Positions 26,532 through 39,424 of a stretch of DNA of 64,000 nt are shown one piece after another. The stretch spans positions 865,923 through 929,922 of the forward strand of contig ML996698.1 of the NCBI GenBank assembly GCA_010356995.1, in the 5' to 3' direction. Numbering within the stretch: the stretch's first letter is position 1; every line of letters starts with the position of its first letter. Source of the DNA: Trichodelitschia bisporula (lineage: Eukaryota). The notes beneath the pieces are model-generated. The model saw nothing but the letters and a program-made list of their open reading frames with translations. It made no database searches and was not told the origin of the DNA. The position numbers were made by a program, and so were the translations under genes.

Positions 26532-27660
26532 TCACCAGCCAGCGAGCGAGCTCAGAAGTAGACCAAAGTCCGCAATGCTCCTTTTACGACTTCTGACAGC
26601 CGCGGAAGGGGTGAAGCGAGAGATCTTGCGGAGCTTTGGAGGCATCAGGAGGCCGGAATTGTGGCCGAAAGGGGCGAGACTGAGTGTCAAGGCCTCCAAA
26701 TTTTGAAACCCCCGAAAGTCTACCACATTCGCAGGAGGCCTGTATAGAAAAAAGAGCGCAAGATCCACCAGGGAGTCTCGGTGCGGCTCTAGTGCTTCCC
26801 GAAACTCATCTCCGTACTCAAAATCATTATGTATTGATTTGAACTCCAGGTGCCGGAGTTGCTTCGGCCAGCTTATTATCTCGTGAAAGTAGTTATAAGA
26901 GCCTGTAAATTGGGTTATGTGGAACTCTGAAAAGGAGTCGCTGCCGGCAGGAAGTCCACGCTAGACACTTATCAGTAGAGCTCACTCTATGAGATTGATG
27001 CTTGGATAGGGGAAATCGTGACGTATTTACGGATGGCGATGCGTACCAACGGAGGGTGCCATCGCATGCTGTCGAGAGTAAGGGATTCAAGACTCGCTGC
27101 ATTGATGCAGTTCGATACATGCGGATGTCCTCCTAGGATATCCCCACGTCCCCTAGGGAACGACGCATTGTAGTATTTATACATTTGGCGATGAGCGACG
27201 CAGGGACGGTCAAGGAGTTTCAGGTCGCTGAGGTTCGGAACCCAGTTGATAAGCCCAGTCAGGAGAACATCCCAAGGCTTCCCCGGGATGGTCAGTAGGG
27301 TACCGTTGGGGCCCTTGCATTCGTGGATGCTTAGACGCAGTTCTCGGCAGAGAGGACGGAGGTTCATGTTTTCTTCCATAGTGCGGTGAAACAACAAGAT
27401 GCTTTGCCCACTGAAGGGCTTTGTAACCCGTCCGGGTGCTGCTTGTTCTCAGCGTCTGGGTGCTGCTCGTTTTCAACGGCCCGATATAGTAGCCACGTTG
27501 CCACAGGACGAAAGAGACGACAGGTGAGCGCAAGATGTTGGTATGCATTTTTCCGCCGTTCTGGGGGACACTCCGGATCGTGCGCCAGTACGAAGATTTC
27601 TTCCAAAAGCTCGTTGGGCAGCTTGAAGACAGGCGGTATGGCGGAGCCAAGAGCTGCCAT
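26532..27660 (-). pseudogene. F-box protein, array copy D (frameshifted)
   Basis: MAALGSAIPPVFKLPNELLEEIF (F-box). Frameshift at about 27400-27450 into 'LFHRTMEENMNLRPLCRELRL', further breaks near 26.9-27.0 kb, and C-terminal 'SLVDL...VDFRGFQNLEALTL' matching copy C. Confidence 0.8.
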
Positions 27661-28639: not shown

Positions 28640-29611
28640 TTAGTACCCGCGGTGCTCGCTCAGAATCTGCTCCAGGAACTTTTTGTCGTCCTCGATGTCC
28701 GACAAGATGACCGTGAGACCGCTTCGTTCTGCATACTTCCTCAGATCGGTCAGAATGTCCGTCGGATAGTCTACTTCCTGTACCGTCGGCACGTCCGATT
28801 CCAACAAATACTCGAGAGCTTCATCCATCCCTTGTTCCCAATCGTCCAAGTCTATGCGAACATCGAGCTTCGGCGGCCGGTAGTCCCTTTCAATCAGGTG
28901 ATTGACCAAGGAGAACAACCACGGCCTTGCTTCCCATCGGCGGACATTGGCAGTACCACGGAGGTAATCCCATCTGACGTCCAGAGAAAGCTTGCACAGC
29001 TTTGGAGGGACCAGGCGCTCGGGAGCCAGACCGGAAGGGACCACAGTAAGTGTCAAGGCCTTCAGGTTTTGGAAATTCCGAAAGTCTACCATGTATGCAG
29101 GAGCGATTGGTAGAACGTGTTCTTTTGGAGAAACACTAAGCGTAAGATCCACCAGAGAATTTCGGTGCAGCTCTACAAGCTCAGTAAGGATGGGGGCCTC
29201 GCCATCGTAACTGTCTAGACGCATTTCTCGGCAGAGAGAACGAAGGCTCACGTTTTCTTTCACCGTGCGATGAAACAACAAGATCCTCTTCCACCTGGTG
29301 TGCTTGTGTTTTTGGGACCGGTGATGCCTGCCCGAAAAAGTCCGATAGAGAAGCCGTTCTGTCACAGCATGAAAGTGGTGACAGGTGAGCGCAAGAGATA
29401 GGTATGTTGTTTTCTTGCGACGCATATTGTTCGCCAGCATGAAGATTTCTGTCAAGATCTCGGGGGGCAGCTTGAAGATAGGCGGTATGGCAGAGTTAAG
29501 AGTTGCCATGTCGTCGGGGGGCCTGAGGATAGGCGGTATGGTAGAGTCAGGAGTTGCCATTTTGTCGGGGGGGCTGTGGATAGGCGGTATGGCAGAGTCA
29601 GAAGTTGCCAT
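28640..29611 (-). CDS. F-box protein, array copy C (triplicated N-terminus, internally shortened)
   Basis: Open 323-aa ORF with 'IPPIFKLPPEILTEIF', 'YLSLALTCHHFHAVTERLLYR' and leucine-patterned repeats. Confidence 0.82.
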   Translation of the reverse strand: MATSDSAIPPIHSPPDKMATPDSTIPPILRPPDDMATLNSAIPPIFKLPPEILTEIFMLANNMRRKKTTYLSLALTCHHFHAVTERLLYRTFSGRHHRSQKHKHTRWKRILLFHRTVKENVSLRSLCREMRLDSYDGEAPILTELVELHRNSLVDLTLSVSPKEHVLPIAPAYMVDFRNFQNLKALTLTVVPSGLAPERLVPPKLCKLSLDVRWDYLRGTANVRRWEARPWLFSLVNHLIERDYRPPKLDVRIDLDDWEQGMDEALEYLLESDVPTVQEVDYPTDILTDLRKYAERSGLTVILSDIEDDKKFLEQILSEHRGY

Positions 29612-31280: not shown

Positions 31281-32909
31281 TCATCTGGAAATTGGATGCA
31301 AAGAGAGCTGACAGAGATCCTCGTTTCGATGAAACCAGTCTCTTCTGCACCAAGATACTGGATTCAAGTGCTCCTCATGCTTCAAATTGCAACGATGTTT
31401 CGCCCCCACCTCCATAGAGAAAAGATGATCGGGCACTGCCGGGGAAGCCTCCTGCTTCGAAAACCCCGGATCGTCGAAAATTGGCTCCATGCCTTCCTTC
31501 GCTGCTTTCTCCTGAAAGACTCGGAGTGTATCCCACGGAAAGAATGGATCACTTGCACGCTCCATCTGAAGAGGCAAAGTGCGGAGCCAGCATTCCGGAC
31601 ACAGCCTGAGCCTGAGCGTTGACATTTGTGGGCGGATACTCCTTAGATGATCGAGAAACCCAGTGAGCCAGTCCTCTCCCTTTCCAGAGATATCAGCAAA
31701 AGGGGGCCACCAATCATTCTCCCAATCATCGACAGGCATCCAGTATGGTCTATCGTTGTGAAGGACAAGAGTACGCAGAGATGGAGGCAAGAGTGTGGCG
31801 TAAGAGTGATGGTCACGAACCGGAAGGGCGAGCGTTTCCAGTTTTGAAAAAGCCGAAAGGTCGATTCTCGGTAGCCAGTTCCATTGGCTTCCCGGGCCCT
31901 CCGTATCAACATCTGGTCCAAGTACCCAAAGCCTAGAGCTGGCAGTCAGGAGAGTCTTCAGGGACCCTCGGTGCAAGTTCAGGGCAGCCTGCATATACTT
32001 AGAGTCGTCCTCCGCCCATGGTACCTCCATGCAACGAGGATGCAGAGAAAAGGCAAGATGTTCAAGTACCTTGGGCCACGATAAAAGTTTGTGAAATTGG
32101 GAAGGAGTCCCGCTAAAATCAGGTAGACGGAGTGTCGTCACAAACCTGGCACCCCCGCCGATCGGCAGTATCCAAGACCAGTTCGTCATGGAGTCTAGGG
32201 TGAAGCTTCTGAGATTTGGCATTTCGAGGACGACGAAATATGACGGAGGAGGTACTATCCATTGGTCCGATACGGACCCTGTGCCATAGTAGAGGTAGAG
32301 ATGTTCGAGGTGCGGCAGCATATGCTGACATGCATGACGAAGGAGTGTATAAACTTCATGGTATTCAAGACGGTCGGGTATATTCATCAACCAGTTTGCG
32401 TCCCTCAGTGAAAGGCTGCGCACGTTTGGAAGCCAGGAGAGCAGATCCCTAACAGTGTCAAACTCCAGCTGATATTCAGGCATGTACCATTCCGGGCACC
32501 ACACCTCTACAGCCTTGCAGTACTGTCGGAGACCAGGGCGTTTGGTCAATGTCCGATGGAGATGCTGCGTACTTGAAAAGCGTTCACTGCCGAAGATCCA
32601 TAGCCGTTTATACAGCAGAGGCAGAGCAATGCGGTAGAACGTTCGGCAGACCGCGGCGATAGCGGCATAGTTGTTATGGGCCTTGACTGTGCGAATCACG
32701 GTTTCGAATAAAGGGAAACTGCATGCCGCTTGGCTGAAGATGAGAATGAGGAGTTCGTCTGGCAGCTTCAAGATAGCTGGGATGGGAATATCTATGGCTA
32801 GAAAGAGGTGGGGCGTCTGCTGTGGGGATTGTGTTGCTCTGCTGACCCAGACCACCTTTATGTTCGAGAGAGGCTGAGAGAGGGTGTTGTAGCACAGGCT
32901 CACTGGCAT
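31281..32909 (-). CDS. F-box protein with LRR-like body, array copy B
   Basis: 542-aa ORF with 'PAILKLPDELLILIFSQA', 'NYAAIAAVCRTFYRIALPLLYK', 'LLSWPKVLEHL', 'DLSAFSKLETLAL'. Start uncertain. Confidence 0.85.
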   Translation of the reverse strand: MPVSLCYNTLSQPLSNIKVVWVSRATQSPQQTPHLFLAIDIPIPAILKLPDELLILIFSQAACSFPLFETVIRTVKAHNNYAAIAAVCRTFYRIALPLLYKRLWIFGSERFSSTQHLHRTLTKRPGLRQYCKAVEVWCPEWYMPEYQLEFDTVRDLLSWLPNVRSLSLRDANWLMNIPDRLEYHEVYTLLRHACQHMLPHLEHLYLYYGTGSVSDQWIVPPPSYFVVLEMPNLRSFTLDSMTNWSWILPIGGGARFVTTLRLPDFSGTPSQFHKLLSWPKVLEHLAFSLHPRCMEVPWAEDDSKYMQAALNLHRGSLKTLLTASSRLWVLGPDVDTEGPGSQWNWLPRIDLSAFSKLETLALPVRDHHSYATLLPPSLRTLVLHNDRPYWMPVDDWENDWWPPFADISGKGEDWLTGFLDHLRSIRPQMSTLRLRLCPECWLRTLPLQMERASDPFFPWDTLRVFQEKAAKEGMEPIFDDPGFSKQEASPAVPDHLFSMEVGAKHRCNLKHEEHLNPVSWCRRDWFHRNEDLCQLSLHPISR

Positions 32910-33998
32910 GTGTGTACAATATGGTGATTGTGAAAGAGTCGATAAAAGACAAGGAGAGTCAGAGAGTCAGAGACTCTCGAGGTATAAATACACGATGCCA
33001 AGTATCATCCTTTGCTCCTTCCTTTCTATCATACTCGCATTACATCACGTCCCAGCTTACATAAGAATGCTCCTTCCATAACTAAGTTCGTACATCAGAG
33101 GGGTGGCGTGGGTGGCTTGGTTGGAGCATGTGCTAGCCACTGATCTCAGGCATCACCACATAGTCGAACGTCAGACGATGAAAATCGCAGGATCTATACT
33201 GCCCTCGGAGTGGTAACACATCTCCATGAGCTGGAGGCGGCTTACCGACTAACCTGAGCTACCGTAGGCACACCCACGCTGATAGCCCCGCGATGCAGTT
33301 CAATTGGCGACTCAAGAGGCCGTCAAGGGGTAGGCGAACGGCTGCAAATGCGCTGAACGTTGCGACGAGTTTTGTACGGCTGGCTAAAAGGCTCTTGAGG
33401 TGTTGTTCGCCTGGTATCACGGTTGGTCCAGTATGCCTGACGTTTCCCGGGATCCAGCTTGCACAACGTCATCTCCAAGCCACGGTCGATCCTGCCGAAA
33501 ACCTAATGAGACACGCTCAGCAAATGAGCGAATGGCGCTCCTGAATACACACCTGCTAAGAAAATTCCCAGCTCCGGTCTAGATATGGGTAGATATCAAG
33601 GCGAAGGCATCACTGCGAAAGCGCGCGGGGATGTCGCCGAGGAGCTTGTCAGGAAGCTTCGAAGTGGGCGCAGTTCGGAGGACTAAAATTGTACAGGCAC
33701 CGACGACTTGATGGGTGGGTGAGGTATTTGTACCGGAAAGATGCAGTACGCAGTCGCGCTGATTGCCGTTGATTGAAGCCTGGGTGAAGGAAGAGGTCAT
33801 CAAAGCATTAACGTGAGGGCAAGGGACACATGCAGCTTCCACGTCCACCCCAGTTCAGAAGAGAAGAACAGGGGTTTGGCGATCTAAAAGTGTATGGAGC
33901 ATCAAAAACCCCGAGACGCCGTTGCATATAGTCTACTTCATCTACTCCACGGACGGAGCGCGGGCCCAGGCTTTCAGCGAAGCTCCGGGTCGCATTTC

Positions 33999-35727
33999 TC
34001 ATACCCATTCATGGCCTTCTAAATGCGAACCCTCACAACCCTCTGCGATGTCTGTCTCTCCTATGTCCTTCGCCGATATTTCATTCCTCGTGAACGGCGG
34101 AGGGTCGAAGACCACGTCTATGCCGTATGTCGCGGCCTTGCCCTTGAGGTAGTGGAACGTCTCCCACGGGAGTGTGTAAGGCCATCCCGGCACATACGTA
34201 GCCTTGATCCACCAGCGCCAGCAGGCTGTACAGGCCTTCATTCGTATGGTACGCAAAGAGGCGGAGTGACCGTCTCCAAGGGTGTCAACGAGCATATCAA
34301 GCCAAGGGGCCTTGAGCTGAGGCCTTTCCGCCAAATCTGCAAACCTTTTGTGGCGCCAGGTCCGCTTGTCGCCTTTCAGGCTGTAATCGATGACGAGAGT
34401 GTGTTGCACTGGACCCACAAGTTTCTCGAATTCTGGCGGTGTGTGATGCGAAGGGATAGTCAGCGTCTCCAACCTCGGGAATTCCGACACGTTTATGTTG
34501 AAAAAATATTGACCTTCGTCATAACCCTCCTCAGGTTGGCGTCCTTTGATGATCTTGAGATTCCTCAGTGACTTTCGTTGATGTTCGAGGCCCTTCTGCA
34601 ATTCAAATTGAAGGGTGTCGTACCACAGATACTCCTCCTCCACAATGGGAGTGATTGAAAGCGTTAGGTCTTCGAGAGCCTCTGGCCACGATAAAACAGG
34701 GGGCAAGTCCTGGGGTTGACCAAAAAATGCGCGTAGCTCGAGCGTTGTCAAGGCCTTGCATGCTATCTTGTTCGGTAAAAAGCCCGCTGGTTCCTTGTCC
34801 TGCATCTCTGGTACACAGTCCACTCTTAGGCGTCTGACTTGCGGAATTTCAACAACACCAACTTCTTCTTTCCAGTTCCACGCGCGATAATCGTCTTGCT
34901 TTTCATAACCGTGTTCTTCAAAAGTCGTGTATGGCAGGGGTGGCGCGCCCGTCAGTGTAAGATGGAGCTCTTCGAGGCGCCGCATATGTTGAGTTGCATG
35001 CTGAATCAGGCGATATATCTCACCCGGCTCCAGTGCTCCGTCTGGTTCATTGAGACACAGCGAGCGGACGTTTGGGTGCCAAGAAAGGAAATCTACAATC
35101 ATCGTCATCCGCCGGTCGTAATCGTCGAGCGCGACGCTCGGGATGTTAATTTTGAGACGCCGGGTGTGTTTTAGAAGATGTCGATTCATCCCCAAAGTGT
35201 TGTAGAGGTTCAAAGATTTCTCGAATATGTCCCCTGGGTAGTAAAATCTAAAATCAAAGACTGCGAGGTTTCGGTACAGCAGAGGCGTCGCGACCTGAAC
35301 GAACCTTCGGCAAACAGCTGCAATGGAAGCGTAGTTATTCCTGAAGTCGCTACAGGTCCCGACAGAGATAATGTGAAGCGCCTTCACCCACGGCAGCCCA
35401 ACCAACTCCAGCATGCGCGCCGTTGCGGGCAGCTTATGCTCGGCATTGTGAGCAGCACGTGCATCAGGTGATCTATTCCTGATAAGGCACCCGCACATGT
35501 GTTCACCTCCGGCAAGAGTGAAGATCTGGTCGAGGAGCTCGTTTGGAAGCCTAAGGATGGGCGCGAGATGGGTCGTTATGGTAGAGGGAGCAGGATCCTC
35601 GTAATCGGGGTTGCTCTTGCGGCGGCGACGGTTCTTACCGCCCTAGATTGCCCTCATCAGCAAATGCGCGTACAAACTCAAGGGACACGCTCAAAGACAA
35701 ACATACCTTGCCGTTATTCTTAGGCAT
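33999..35727 (-). CDS. F-box protein, array copy A, with an eIF1A-like N-terminal peptide
   Basis: Exon 1 35727-35707 (MPKNNGK); intron 35706-35643 (GTATGT...GCTGAT...TAG); exon 2 reads GGKNRRRRKSNPDYEDPAPSTITTHLAPILRLPNELLDQIF in frame with the 499-aa ORF ('NYASIAAVCRRFVQVATPLLYR', 'VLSWPEALEDL'). Confidence 0.85.
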
Positions 35728-36137
35728 AGTGGATCGTTGCAGAAGTTTCGAATCAGTGGATGATCCGGTTCTGCGGTCCAGAATCCCAGGACCGGGTGTC
35801 GGTGTTTGCTGGAGGACGGTTTGACTCGTAGCTTTGCAATGTTCCACTGTCTTCTTTTCGGCGTACGACCTCACAGTTGGTTGTAGAGGTTGTCTTATCC
35901 TGCTTGAAGGATATTCGTACCTGAGGGAGTGGCGAAGTCATAGGGAGCAGGAGGGGTGACGGTCGTGACGTTGTCACGGTGTTTCCAGGGCCCCGCCCCG
36001 CGCCTCCCCGGCACACGCCTGGTCACGTGAGGCGTGCCATCGATCTCAGCCTCAGATCTTAGGCTCTCCCAGCGATCTCAGCCTCCAAACTTCAACTCCA
36101 CCATGGACACCCACCTTCTCGCGCTATCCCCTCGCAA

Positions 36138-37480
36138 ATGCTCCTACCCCCACGCTGCATTGCCGCCGCCCGCAATGCCGCTCATCTAAACCACACCTTC
36201 TACCGCCACATCGCTGCCGTCCGCAATGTCGCCTTCCGCAATGCCGCTCAACTAACCCACACCTCCTCCCGGCTTCTCTCATGGCCCGCCCGCGTCGCCG
36301 ACCCGCACTCCCGCCTCCAAGCCTACATCTCCACCTCCCCGAACCCAGTCCTAAACCTCTCCATCGAGCACTTCCTCTTCCAGACCTCCCCCCCAGGCAG
36401 CCGCATCCTCTTCCTCTACACCAATTCGCCCAGCATCATCCTCGGCCGCAACCAAAACCCATGGTCGGAAGTCAATCTCTCGCTCCTCTCCGCCGCACCG
36501 CGGGGCCCGCAGACCGAGCCTCCGGATTTGGGGGCCGTGGCGCTGGTCCGGAGGCGGAGTGGTGGTGGGACAGTGTTTCATGATGGGGGGAATGTGAATT
36601 GGAGTGTGATTTGTGATTTGGGCGAGTTTACGCGCGATAAGCATGCGGAGATGGTTGTTCGGGCTTTGCGTGAACTGGGGGTAGAGCGTGCGCGGGTGAA
36701 TGAGCGGCATGACATTGTGCTCGATCAGGGGGCGACGAGACGCCAGTCGGATACTGAAGATACGCATCGGACGCCGTGGACGGATCCGGACGCCCCACCG
36801 CCGCTTAAGGTCTCCGGGTCGGCATATAAGCTTGCGCGGAATCGGGCGCTGCATCATGGGACAGCGCTGCTGGGAAGTCCGAATTTGCATGTTATCCCGG
36901 ACTACTTGCACAGTCCGGCGAAGGGGCTGATTACGTCTAAAGGCGTTGCGAGTGTGAGTAGTCCGGTGGGGAATATTGGGGTCGAGAATGGGGCGTTTGA
37001 GGATGCGGTGCGGGACGAGTTTCTACGGATGTATGCCGCTGATGTGGAGGCGGAAGTTGTGGGTGAGCAAATGCTCGAGGTACCGGAGGTAAAGAAAGGA
37101 TATGTGGAGTTGAAGAGTCCCGAGTGGACGTATCTTCAAACGCCGCAGTTCACGTTTTCCACGCCGGTGCTTGAACGCATCGCGTCGGGACAGCTGGTAA
37201 GTCTCCCCCTGCTGTCTTCCATTGCTACATGCGCTGACAACCTCAGCGGGAGGGTGCCTTCACAATGAGCGTGCGCTACGGCGTCATCACCAGCATCTCG
37301 CTGGAGGGGCTTCCCGGGACGCTAGAACTCGCCAACTTTGCCGATCGGCGTCTGCACGAGGTCCAGTCGTGGAAGGACTTCCTCCATGGCTTGGACCTTG
37401 AGGTTCCTGTCTCGCATGGGCACGTCTCGCTGCCGTCTTTCCTCACCTCCGCGTTCCCTCCAACTTCCATGTGCATCTAA
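36138..37480 (+). CDS. AIM22: Mitochondrial lipoate-protein ligase A (Aim22/Lip3-like)
   Basis: 'NLSIEHFLF', 'IILGRNQNPWSEVN', 'RRRSGGGTVFHDGGNVN', 'KVSGSAYK', 'HHGTALL'. Intron 37197-37246. Confidence 0.93.
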
Positions 37481-38440: not shown

Positions 38441-39424
38441 CTACCACGGCCCAACCGTAGCAGCAGCAGCCCCATACGACCCATTAAACAACTGCTCGCG
38501 TATGCTCCCCGCATCACCCTGCGTCTGGCCCCCACTAGCCATCGTCCCCATCCACCCCAGACTAGCCCTCAACTCCCCCATCGCCTCTCCCATCTTCCCT
38601 CCACTCTCGGCATGATGTCTCGCCAGCTTCCCATCCCACCCTCCGACCTGTAACTGAATGCCTCCGCCCCGCTTACTCGCCTCGCGCACCACTAGCGCCC
38701 ACGCCCGCGCCACCTCATCGTACGCTTCCGCTTTGTGCCTATTATTCGCATATGAATCCCAGGCGGGGAGACGATGAATCAACTCCGTCACGCCGTCGAG
38801 GAACGAGAGCGATACGGACGGCTGCGTTTCGTGGGGGGGCAAAAAGTGCGGCGTGTAATCCCTTAACGCGTCAAGCAGGGAGAGCAATTGCGGCCTAACG
38901 CGGTTAAACGCATAATCGCTGCTCACCCTATTCCCAAACGGAAAAGCCGCCCGTAGCGCAGACTCGTAGTTATTCAGCACGGCGAGCGCGGCGTGCACGC
39001 TTGGCCTTGGAGCGGAGGATTGTACTTCGGCGGCGACCGTCGGGTGGCGGTCGCACATGCTGCGCAGCAGGGAGCGCATGTCGTCTTCGGAAAGCGTTTC
39101 GAGCAGCCGGGATAGGGGCAGCGGGCGGCCTGAGAGGTTTTTGCGTGCGCGTTTTGTGTGCCGCGGGGGGAGGGCGCGGGCGGGGAAGCTGGGACTGGCG
39201 GAGGGGGAGGCGGACATGCGGATGTCGTCGTCGGGGGGGGTGGAGTCGGATACTTTGCGCTTGCGGGAGGACATGGCGTTGGTGTTCGAGGGGGCGGTCA
39301 GAGCTGGGACGGTTAGCGCGATGCTTTGGGGGTGGGCCGGGGGATACCGACTGCGGGAAGGGGAATGGCGGTTTGGGAGGAGATGGGGGGCGAAGAGGGG
39401 TTGTTGGCTTGGGAGGACGTTCAT
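38441..39424 (-). CDS. STS1: Tethering factor for the nuclear proteasome (Sts1/Cut8)
   Basis: 'SSRKRK' NLS, 'GRPLPLSRLLETL', 'SDYAFNRVR', 'YTPHFLPPHE'. Probable in-frame 48-nt intron 39351-39304. Confidence 0.92.
   Translation of the reverse strand: MNVLPSQQPLFAPHLLPNRHSPSRSRYPPAHPQSIALTVPALTAPSNTNAMSSRKRKVSDSTPPDDDIRMSASPSASPSFPARALPPRHTKRARKNLSGRPLPLSRLLETLSEDDMRSLLRSMCDRHPTVAAEVQSSAPRPSVHAALAVLNNYESALRAAFPFGNRVSSDYAFNRVRPQLLSLLDALRDYTPHFLPPHETQPSVSLSFLDGVTELIHRLPAWDSYANNRHKAEAYDEVARAWALVVREASKRGGGIQLQVGGWDGKLARHHAESGGKMGEAMGELRASLGWMGTMASGGQTQGDAGSIREQLFNGSYGAAAATVGPW

Follow-up and report, generated by a model that had tools for sequence, protein, structure and literature searches.

An F-box/LRR gene of Trichodelitschia bisporula with a putatively eIF1A-derived 5′ end

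The F-box gene and its surroundings

The window (by which we mean the whole stretch of 64,000 nt analysed here) comes from the Dothideomycete Trichodelitschia bisporula and carries four tandem F-box-type genes on its minus strand, at positions 27621, 29470, 32765 and 35549. The two genes at about 27.6 and 29.5 kb are shorter and of a different type (a 323-aa ORF lies at 28640-29611), with the N-terminus MA(A/T)L. The subject of this report is the fourth gene, which encodes 554 amino acids and is transcribed divergently from a lipoate-protein ligase gene (Table 1).

Table 1. Features of the F-box gene at 35549 and of its divergent neighbour (positions in the window)
Feature	Position	Strand	Remarks
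Whole gene	ATG 35727; 21-nt exon; 64-nt intron 35706-35643; exon 2 35642-33999	-	encodes 554 aa
5′UTR, minimum extent 182 nt	35728..35909	-	X1 contig reaches 35909; contains no ATG
Exon 1, coding part, 7 codons (MPKNNGK), eIF1A-like	35707..35727	-	equals eIF1A codons 1-7 except K5N
Intron 1, 64 nt, phase 0, GTATGT..CTGAT..TAG	35643..35706	-	skipped in X1 and X2 contigs
Exon 2, whole: 547 codons and stop; F-box with ~50-residue insert, then LRR-like solenoid	33999..35642	-	
Start of exon 2, codons 8-22 (GGKNRRRRKSNPDYE), eIF1A-like; similarity ends here	35598..35642	-	tblastn, 10/15 identical
First F-box helix (APILRLPNELLDQIF)	35520..35564	-	falls on the LPxELL motif in an alignment with 16 relatives; predicted helical at residues 35-38 and 41-52, pLDDT 81-91
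Second half of F-box-like domain (PF12937 profile positions 21-44)	35265..35333	-	P0001 residues 104-126, E 0.039
First exon of lipoate-protein ligase gene, divergent neighbour	36138..37195	+	PF21948, E 9.9e-43; 410 nt upstream of the ATG

A mechanical ORF search starts this gene at the ATG at 35498 on the minus strand. The frame of exon 2 remains open upstream of this codon up to 35642, where it is closed by a TAG at 35645-35643, and the F-box motif APILRLPNELLDQIF, noted upstream by the initial annotation of this DNA, lies within this open stretch with no in-frame ATG before it. That annotation also proposed a first exon of 21 nt and an intron of 64 nt, and this structure was confirmed; the intron has a GTATGT donor, a branch-like CTGAT and a TAG acceptor. 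The spliced product begins with MPKNNGKGGKNRRRRKS, the exons being joined as MPKNNGK/GGKNRRRRKSN, and it is identical in every letter to a public 554-aa model (7 + 547 aa), P0003, the hypothetical protein EJ06DRAFT_583229 of T. bisporula, which a protein search had returned with 100% identity to the translation of exon 2. The gene model including exon 1 is already public under this name.

Splicing across the predicted junction, which had been named as a check on the gene structure, is seen in the contigs of two sequencing runs, X1 and X2. Both omit exactly 64 nt at 35641/35706, and the CT..AC ends of the skipped segment on the plus strand correspond to GT..AG on the strand of the gene. X1 and X2 stem from one sample of one study, which may be the same data as those behind the public gene model, and their records carry no RNA label; we read them as spliced RNA because they skip canonical introns both here and in neighbouring genes (37196-37245, in the lipoate ligase gene, and 39304-39351). 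One contig of 1881 nt covers 35909-35706 and 35641-33966 with no other letters, and thus connects the 5′UTR and exon 1 with the F-box body. On this evidence, the hybrid forms one transcription unit whose exons are spliced together. Word depth in the contigs, a measure unsuited to ranking genes by expression, is 220.5 (X1) and 508.8 (X2) for this gene, and ~0-27 (X1) and 2.6-194 (X2) for the neighbouring paralogue at 31281-32909, where it is low across most of the gene body. On this measure, the housekeeping-level expression suggested in the initial annotation is no more than a possibility.

With respect to its body, the product is an F-box and LRR protein; the fungal family to which it belongs is small and evolves fast. 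In an exhaustive HMMER search of 1.84 billion representatives, no more than 27 further relatives reached E<=0.001, and the neighbouring paralogue ranked first among them with 32% identity. Like the FBXL-type SCF receptors (FBXL3, Skp2, TIR1) and fungal PF12937 proteins, it has an LPxELLxxIF helix, a second F-box half and strand-helix repeats; it differs from them in its eIF1A-like tail, in an insert that splits the F-box and in a Pfam score below the cut-off. Specifically, P0003 matches no Pfam family at E<=0.01, whereas PF12937 is matched by 14 of the 17 aligned family members, and the F-box-like score is 14.2 bits, for the second half only, against a cut-off of 24.3 that the neighbouring paralogue exceeds with 26.4 bits. 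We attribute the sub-threshold score to the insert, a low-confidence segment of ~50 residues (35327-35479; P0003 residues 55-105) that follows the first helix and is longer than in all 16 aligned relatives.

The predicted structure (pLDDT 69.5, pTM 0.72) shows a disordered tail (residues 1-30, pLDDT <50), a confident F-box helix and alternating strand-helix repeats over residues 132-520 that would form an LRR solenoid. A fold search against the PDB returned 34 structures with E<=0.001, of which the best had E 8.2e-06; their TM-scores are low (0.19-0.45). FBXL3, TIR1, NLRC4 and MAX2 lead the list, and D3, COI1, Skp2, FBXL2 and Dia2 complexes are also among the best matches.

The neighbouring paralogue shows an irregularity at its own 5′ end (ATG 32909). 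The contigs have an extra G behind 32896, and in the surrounding region (32884-33079) they end loosely at several points and omit 77 nt between non-canonical borders (32981/33059). Either the paralogue is perhaps modelled wrongly at its 5′ end, or the assembly may contain an error at this place.

The eIF1A-like start and the position of its intron

The first residues of the F-box protein resemble the N-terminus of eIF1A, which in fungi and in human reads MPKNKGKGGKNRRRGKN. Fourteen of 17 residues are identical, the differences being K5N, G15R and N17S; leaving out position 17 gives 14/16, the value on which the initial annotation had based its proposal, and an extension to D20 and E22 gives 16/22. 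When the whole 554-aa protein was searched against the PDB, six of the seven matches at E<=10 were eIF1A, and all six aligned N-terminus to N-terminus (query residues 1-21, 1-20 or 2-21). The peptide match alone is statistically marginal, however, with a best E of 0.082 against the PDB, and of low complexity. ESM Atlas, queried with residues 1-30, returned no usable match by features, and its structural rows were unrelated bacterial proteins. Nor did a word-based comparison of residues 1-40 with shorter proteins give any candidate with three words in common, a result without bearing on whether eIF1A is present among these proteins.

Within eIF1A itself this start hardly varies. MPKNKGKGGKNRRRGKNE is present in all 16 fetched fungal eIF1A proteins, at the N-terminus in 15 of them and behind an N-terminal extension in P0146, and the exact 17-mer occurs in 121 of the 162 eIF1A-family proteins retrieved. 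Among the 41 proteins without it, there is one real substitution (K7R, in P0064) and one extra residue after the methionine; in the remainder, the start is missing or the gene model is disturbed at the intron. Judged by these sequences, K5N, G15R and N17S affect positions that are otherwise invariant in correctly started eIF1A, the K7R model being the sole exception in this stretch.

The similarity to eIF1A is confined to this end of the protein. Five fungal eIF1A proteins compared by tblastn with the whole 64-kb window gave as their sole match the 15 residues at 35642-35598, and Pfam found no PF01176 at E<=1 in the window protein, so that the OB fold (S1-like) is absent, as had been claimed from the first reading of the sequence. 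Furthermore, the C-terminal end of P0003 is unrelated to eIF1A, whereas the C-termini of the fetched fungal eIF1A proteins are rich in Asp and Glu. By these sequence comparisons, the F-box protein is not a member of the eIF1A family and carries an eIF1A fragment only. None of the 27 relatives of the F-box protein aligned to its residues 1-98, the tail is present in none of the 18 fetched relatives, and no intermediate form of it occurs in the family. The peptide is likewise missing from the three further F-box-type genes of the window, in line with the earlier reading, and the tail appears to be unique to this protein among the F-box relatives found.

The most telling evidence is the position of the intron. 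Metagenome contigs were scanned for a degenerate version of the seven-codon exon 1 of eIF1A, which yielded at least 120 loci and 122 listed matches. In 25 of these 122, a GT..AG intron of 54-209 nt stands exactly after codon 7 and is followed by GGKNRRRGKN; in 56 the coding sequence goes straight on with no intron, and the remaining 41 fit neither description. Among the matches listed, 28 have a GT next, and 25 of these are eIF1A while three are not. The 25 intron-bearing loci among the matches listed are nearest to named eIF1A proteins of Lecanoro-, Eurotio-, Leotio-, Sordario- and Dothideomycetes, i.e., of Pezizomycotina, and two of them (L066 and L069) match the eIF1A of an Alternaria cluster at 151/153 and 151/152 residues. 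Four Pezizomycotina-type matches in the list are intron-free; they lie on short contigs with uninterrupted ORFs, one with a poly-A, and look like transcripts. Thus, the proposal that eIF1A has an intron after codon 7 holds in these 25 Pezizomycotina-type loci.

The intron of the F-box gene lies at the same phase-0 codon boundary, directly before GGKNRRR, as in the 25 listed fungal eIF1A loci. The first intron of human EIF1AX is placed at codon 6 rather than after codon 7 in a passage of PMC5464544, and the window intron therefore matches the fungal gene structure specifically. In sum of its likeness to eIF1A (EIF1AX in human, PF01176), the F-box protein has 14 of the first 17 residues of the basic N-terminal tail, and its gene shares with Pezizomycotina eIF1A genes an exon 1 of seven codons and the phase-0 intron that precedes GGKNRRR; unlike eIF1A, the protein lacks the acidic C-terminal tail as well as the OB fold.

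The coding letters themselves do not add to this comparison. Over the first 51 nt, the F-box gene shares 36-43 identical positions with eIF1A loci, as against 34-48 among the eIF1A loci themselves, and this value is uninformative, since constraint on the protein alone would also yield it. The eIF1A of T. bisporula was absent from the best 120 of 4836 matches and from the members of 10 Dothideomycete clusters.

One other listed match (L019:274-296) reads MPKNNGK, with the same Asn at position 5. It is the only one to do so, has no eIF1A-like sequence after it and is probably a chance match.

Origin of the 5′ end

The best explanation for these findings is a chimeric gene, in which an eIF1A-derived 5′ end was joined to an F-box/LRR gene by capture at the level of DNA, and we put the probability of this reading at about 0.8. 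A genomic piece of eIF1A comprising the start codon, the seven-codon exon 1, intron 1 and approximately the first 10-15 codons of exon 2 would have become fused, in frame, with the 5′ side of an F-box/LRR gene within the tandem array. The donor similarity is limited to one contiguous end of the gene (codons 1-17, perhaps to 22, and the intron position), and the agreement of the peptide match with equal exon length and equal intron phase and position points to one capture event. The direction and mode of the capture are inferred. Because the intron was retained, the event would have taken place by partial duplication or ectopic joining of DNA and not through an mRNA copy, and retroposition is unlikely; the intron would have been inherited from eIF1A, and it is correctly spliced in a transcribed gene.

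The initial annotation had described the event as a fusion of an eIF1A promoter, exon 1 and intron to an F-box body. The chimeric nature, the eIF1A-derived 5′ end, exon 1 and the intron position stand, while two parts of this proposal need revision. First, the eIF1A-like stretch continues past the intron to codon 17, perhaps 22, which puts the breakpoint in exon 2, between codons 17 and ~23, and not in the intron. Second, promoter capture is not supported by the sequence comparisons: neither the region upstream of the ATG nor the inside of the intron has nucleotide similarity to the eIF1A loci of other fungi, and the 410 nt preceding the window ATG contain none of the 25 7-mers that are most frequent ahead of 22 eIF1A loci. 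The 5′ region has no second copy within the window. A further suggestion, that eIF1A lies head-to-head with the lipoate ligase gene in relatives, was not borne out by the eIF1A loci found, whose flanks (<=1.5 kb, from other fungi) contain no LplA match.

Among the alternatives, one keeps the eIF1A ancestry and reverses the history. The locus would be the ancestral eIF1A locus, whose exon 2 was interrupted by insertion of the F-box gene or of the entire array, with a working eIF1A elsewhere; the 5′ end would then be the remnant of a disruption and not a duplicated fragment. This would account for a working promoter, 5′UTR, ATG and intron standing together before an F-box body. We nevertheless consider it unlikely, for no OB-fold or C-terminal remnant of eIF1A is found in the 64-kb window, and the lack of LplA matches in the sequences flanking the retrieved eIF1A loci speaks against it as well. 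Moreover, a tblastx comparison of the eIF1A loci with the window yielded, besides the start of eIF1A, no more than one match of 25 residues (E ~1e-4), and apart from the latter there is no flanking gene common to the window and these loci, for flanks of 1.5 kb or 300 nt from other fungi.

One might also ask whether eIF1A is involved at all, since N-termini rich in Lys, Arg and Gly are common, the peptide match alone is no better than the E value given above, and nucleotide similarity is absent outside the coding letters. A basic, NLS-like N-terminus would then have arisen independently, and its intron position would coincide with that of eIF1A by chance. Fourteen of 17 residues are identical and in unchanged order from the methionine onward, though, and the exon has seven codons with a phase-0 intron directly before GGKNRRR, just as in the 25 listed fungal eIF1A loci. 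That 25 of the 28 listed pattern matches followed by GT are eIF1A, and that the F-box family offers no intermediate, also speaks against convergence, which we regard as improbable.

An artefact, in which a misassembly or a chimeric transcript contig joined the 5′ end of eIF1A to an unrelated gene, is very improbable even though the transcript support comes from one sample on which the public model was perhaps also built, because the genome and the contigs, apart from the intron that the latter lack, do not differ in any letter from 35909 to 33966, the frame is unbroken from the tail into the F-box, and the three differences from the true eIF1A peptide restrict any shared exact run to less than 31 nt. 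By our reasoning from the sequences, the longest possible identical run, between K5N and G15R, is ~29 nt, and hence an assembly chimera with a real eIF1A mRNA at k=31 is unlikely.

Chimeric genes that arise by partial duplication and fusion are a known kind, as Drosophila chimeric genes (PMC1463047) and human CHRFAM7A (PMC7949125) illustrate, and the F-box gene is a tidy, not an unusual example. As in these cases, a fragment of a conserved parent is fused to another gene, the hybrid is transcribed, and the exon-intron structure of the parent is preserved. In comparison with them, the donated piece is very small (~17-22 codons plus a single intron), and its donor is an essential translation factor. 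Literature searches that combined eIF1A with chimeric genes or partial duplication, or that looked for fusions of F-box genes in Dothideomycetes, listed no eIF1A-derived chimera, and in one of them eIF1A is absent from all of the ten best of 109 papers.

The gene is a clean instance of exon capture by a filamentous fungus, and one that is datable in principle. Its donor is identified by a shared intron position besides a short peptide, and the intron also indicates an event at the DNA level. It further illustrates how fast-evolving F-box arrays acquire new 5′ ends. The practical stakes are small, as the gene concerns one species and its public model already includes exon 1.

Possible roles of the tail, and eIF1A first introns

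The product is a predicted SCF-type substrate adaptor that would carry a disordered and strongly basic N-terminal tail, in which G15R creates five consecutive basic residues (RRRRK). Since K5N, G15R and N17S are changes at invariant positions, the tail would no longer be under the constraints of eIF1A itself. Its present role is most likely to supply a start codon and a 5′ end. Judging from the reading frame, no start other than the eIF1A-derived ATG at 35727 leaves the F-box complete, and this is the sole functional consequence evident from the sequence.

The tail may perhaps also serve in nuclear import, having been retained as a ready-made nuclear localisation signal. A passage in a 2026 preprint describes the N-terminus of the EIF1A family as a conserved NLS (10.64898/2026.10.26.761752), and the NLS prediction and mutation reported in a part of another paper gave unclear results (PMC9800903). 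A bolder idea is that the tail keeps its role in eIF1A and contacts the 40S subunit or the pre-initiation complex, or the transport factors of eIF1A. Targeting to ribosomes by such a tail is no more than possible, and we consider a preserved eIF1A role unlikely. If it were true, an SCF ubiquitin-ligase adaptor would be placed at initiating ribosomes, or would act as a competitor of eIF1A, and start-codon selection would become coupled to ubiquitination in this lineage. The gene is also a natural experiment on what the N-terminal tail of eIF1A can do when it is detached from the OB fold.

The comparison with eIF1A genes also yielded some observations on their first intron. Misreadings at the codon-7 intron occur in many public eIF1A models of metagenomic origin and in some of genomic origin. 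Seven of them read MPKNKGKV... into the donor (P0031, P0033, P0034, P0037, P0041, P0044 and P0098), and at least 12 have their start within the intron, so that ...QGGKNRRR spans the acceptor (P0035, P0042, P0046, P0053, P0058, P0059, P0063, P0065, P0066, P0074, P0081 and P0144).

A G-rich run (GGGGCGGGGCC, minus strand) lies at 35980-36010, in the 410-nt intergenic region from which the F-box gene and the lipoate ligase gene diverge. The run is distinct from sense-oriented CCCCGC[CT]A, a motif of eIF1A introns which is absent from the intron of the F-box gene in the window. In eIF1A, this motif is present in the sense orientation in 8 of the 25 listed first introns (L004, L008, L010, L021, L066, L069, L098 and L109), with 10 matches in 2982 nt. 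It occurs twice just upstream of the ATG (L039 and L107) and only once in 68,998 nt elsewhere in the same loci, and from this distribution it may be a conserved intronic regulatory element.
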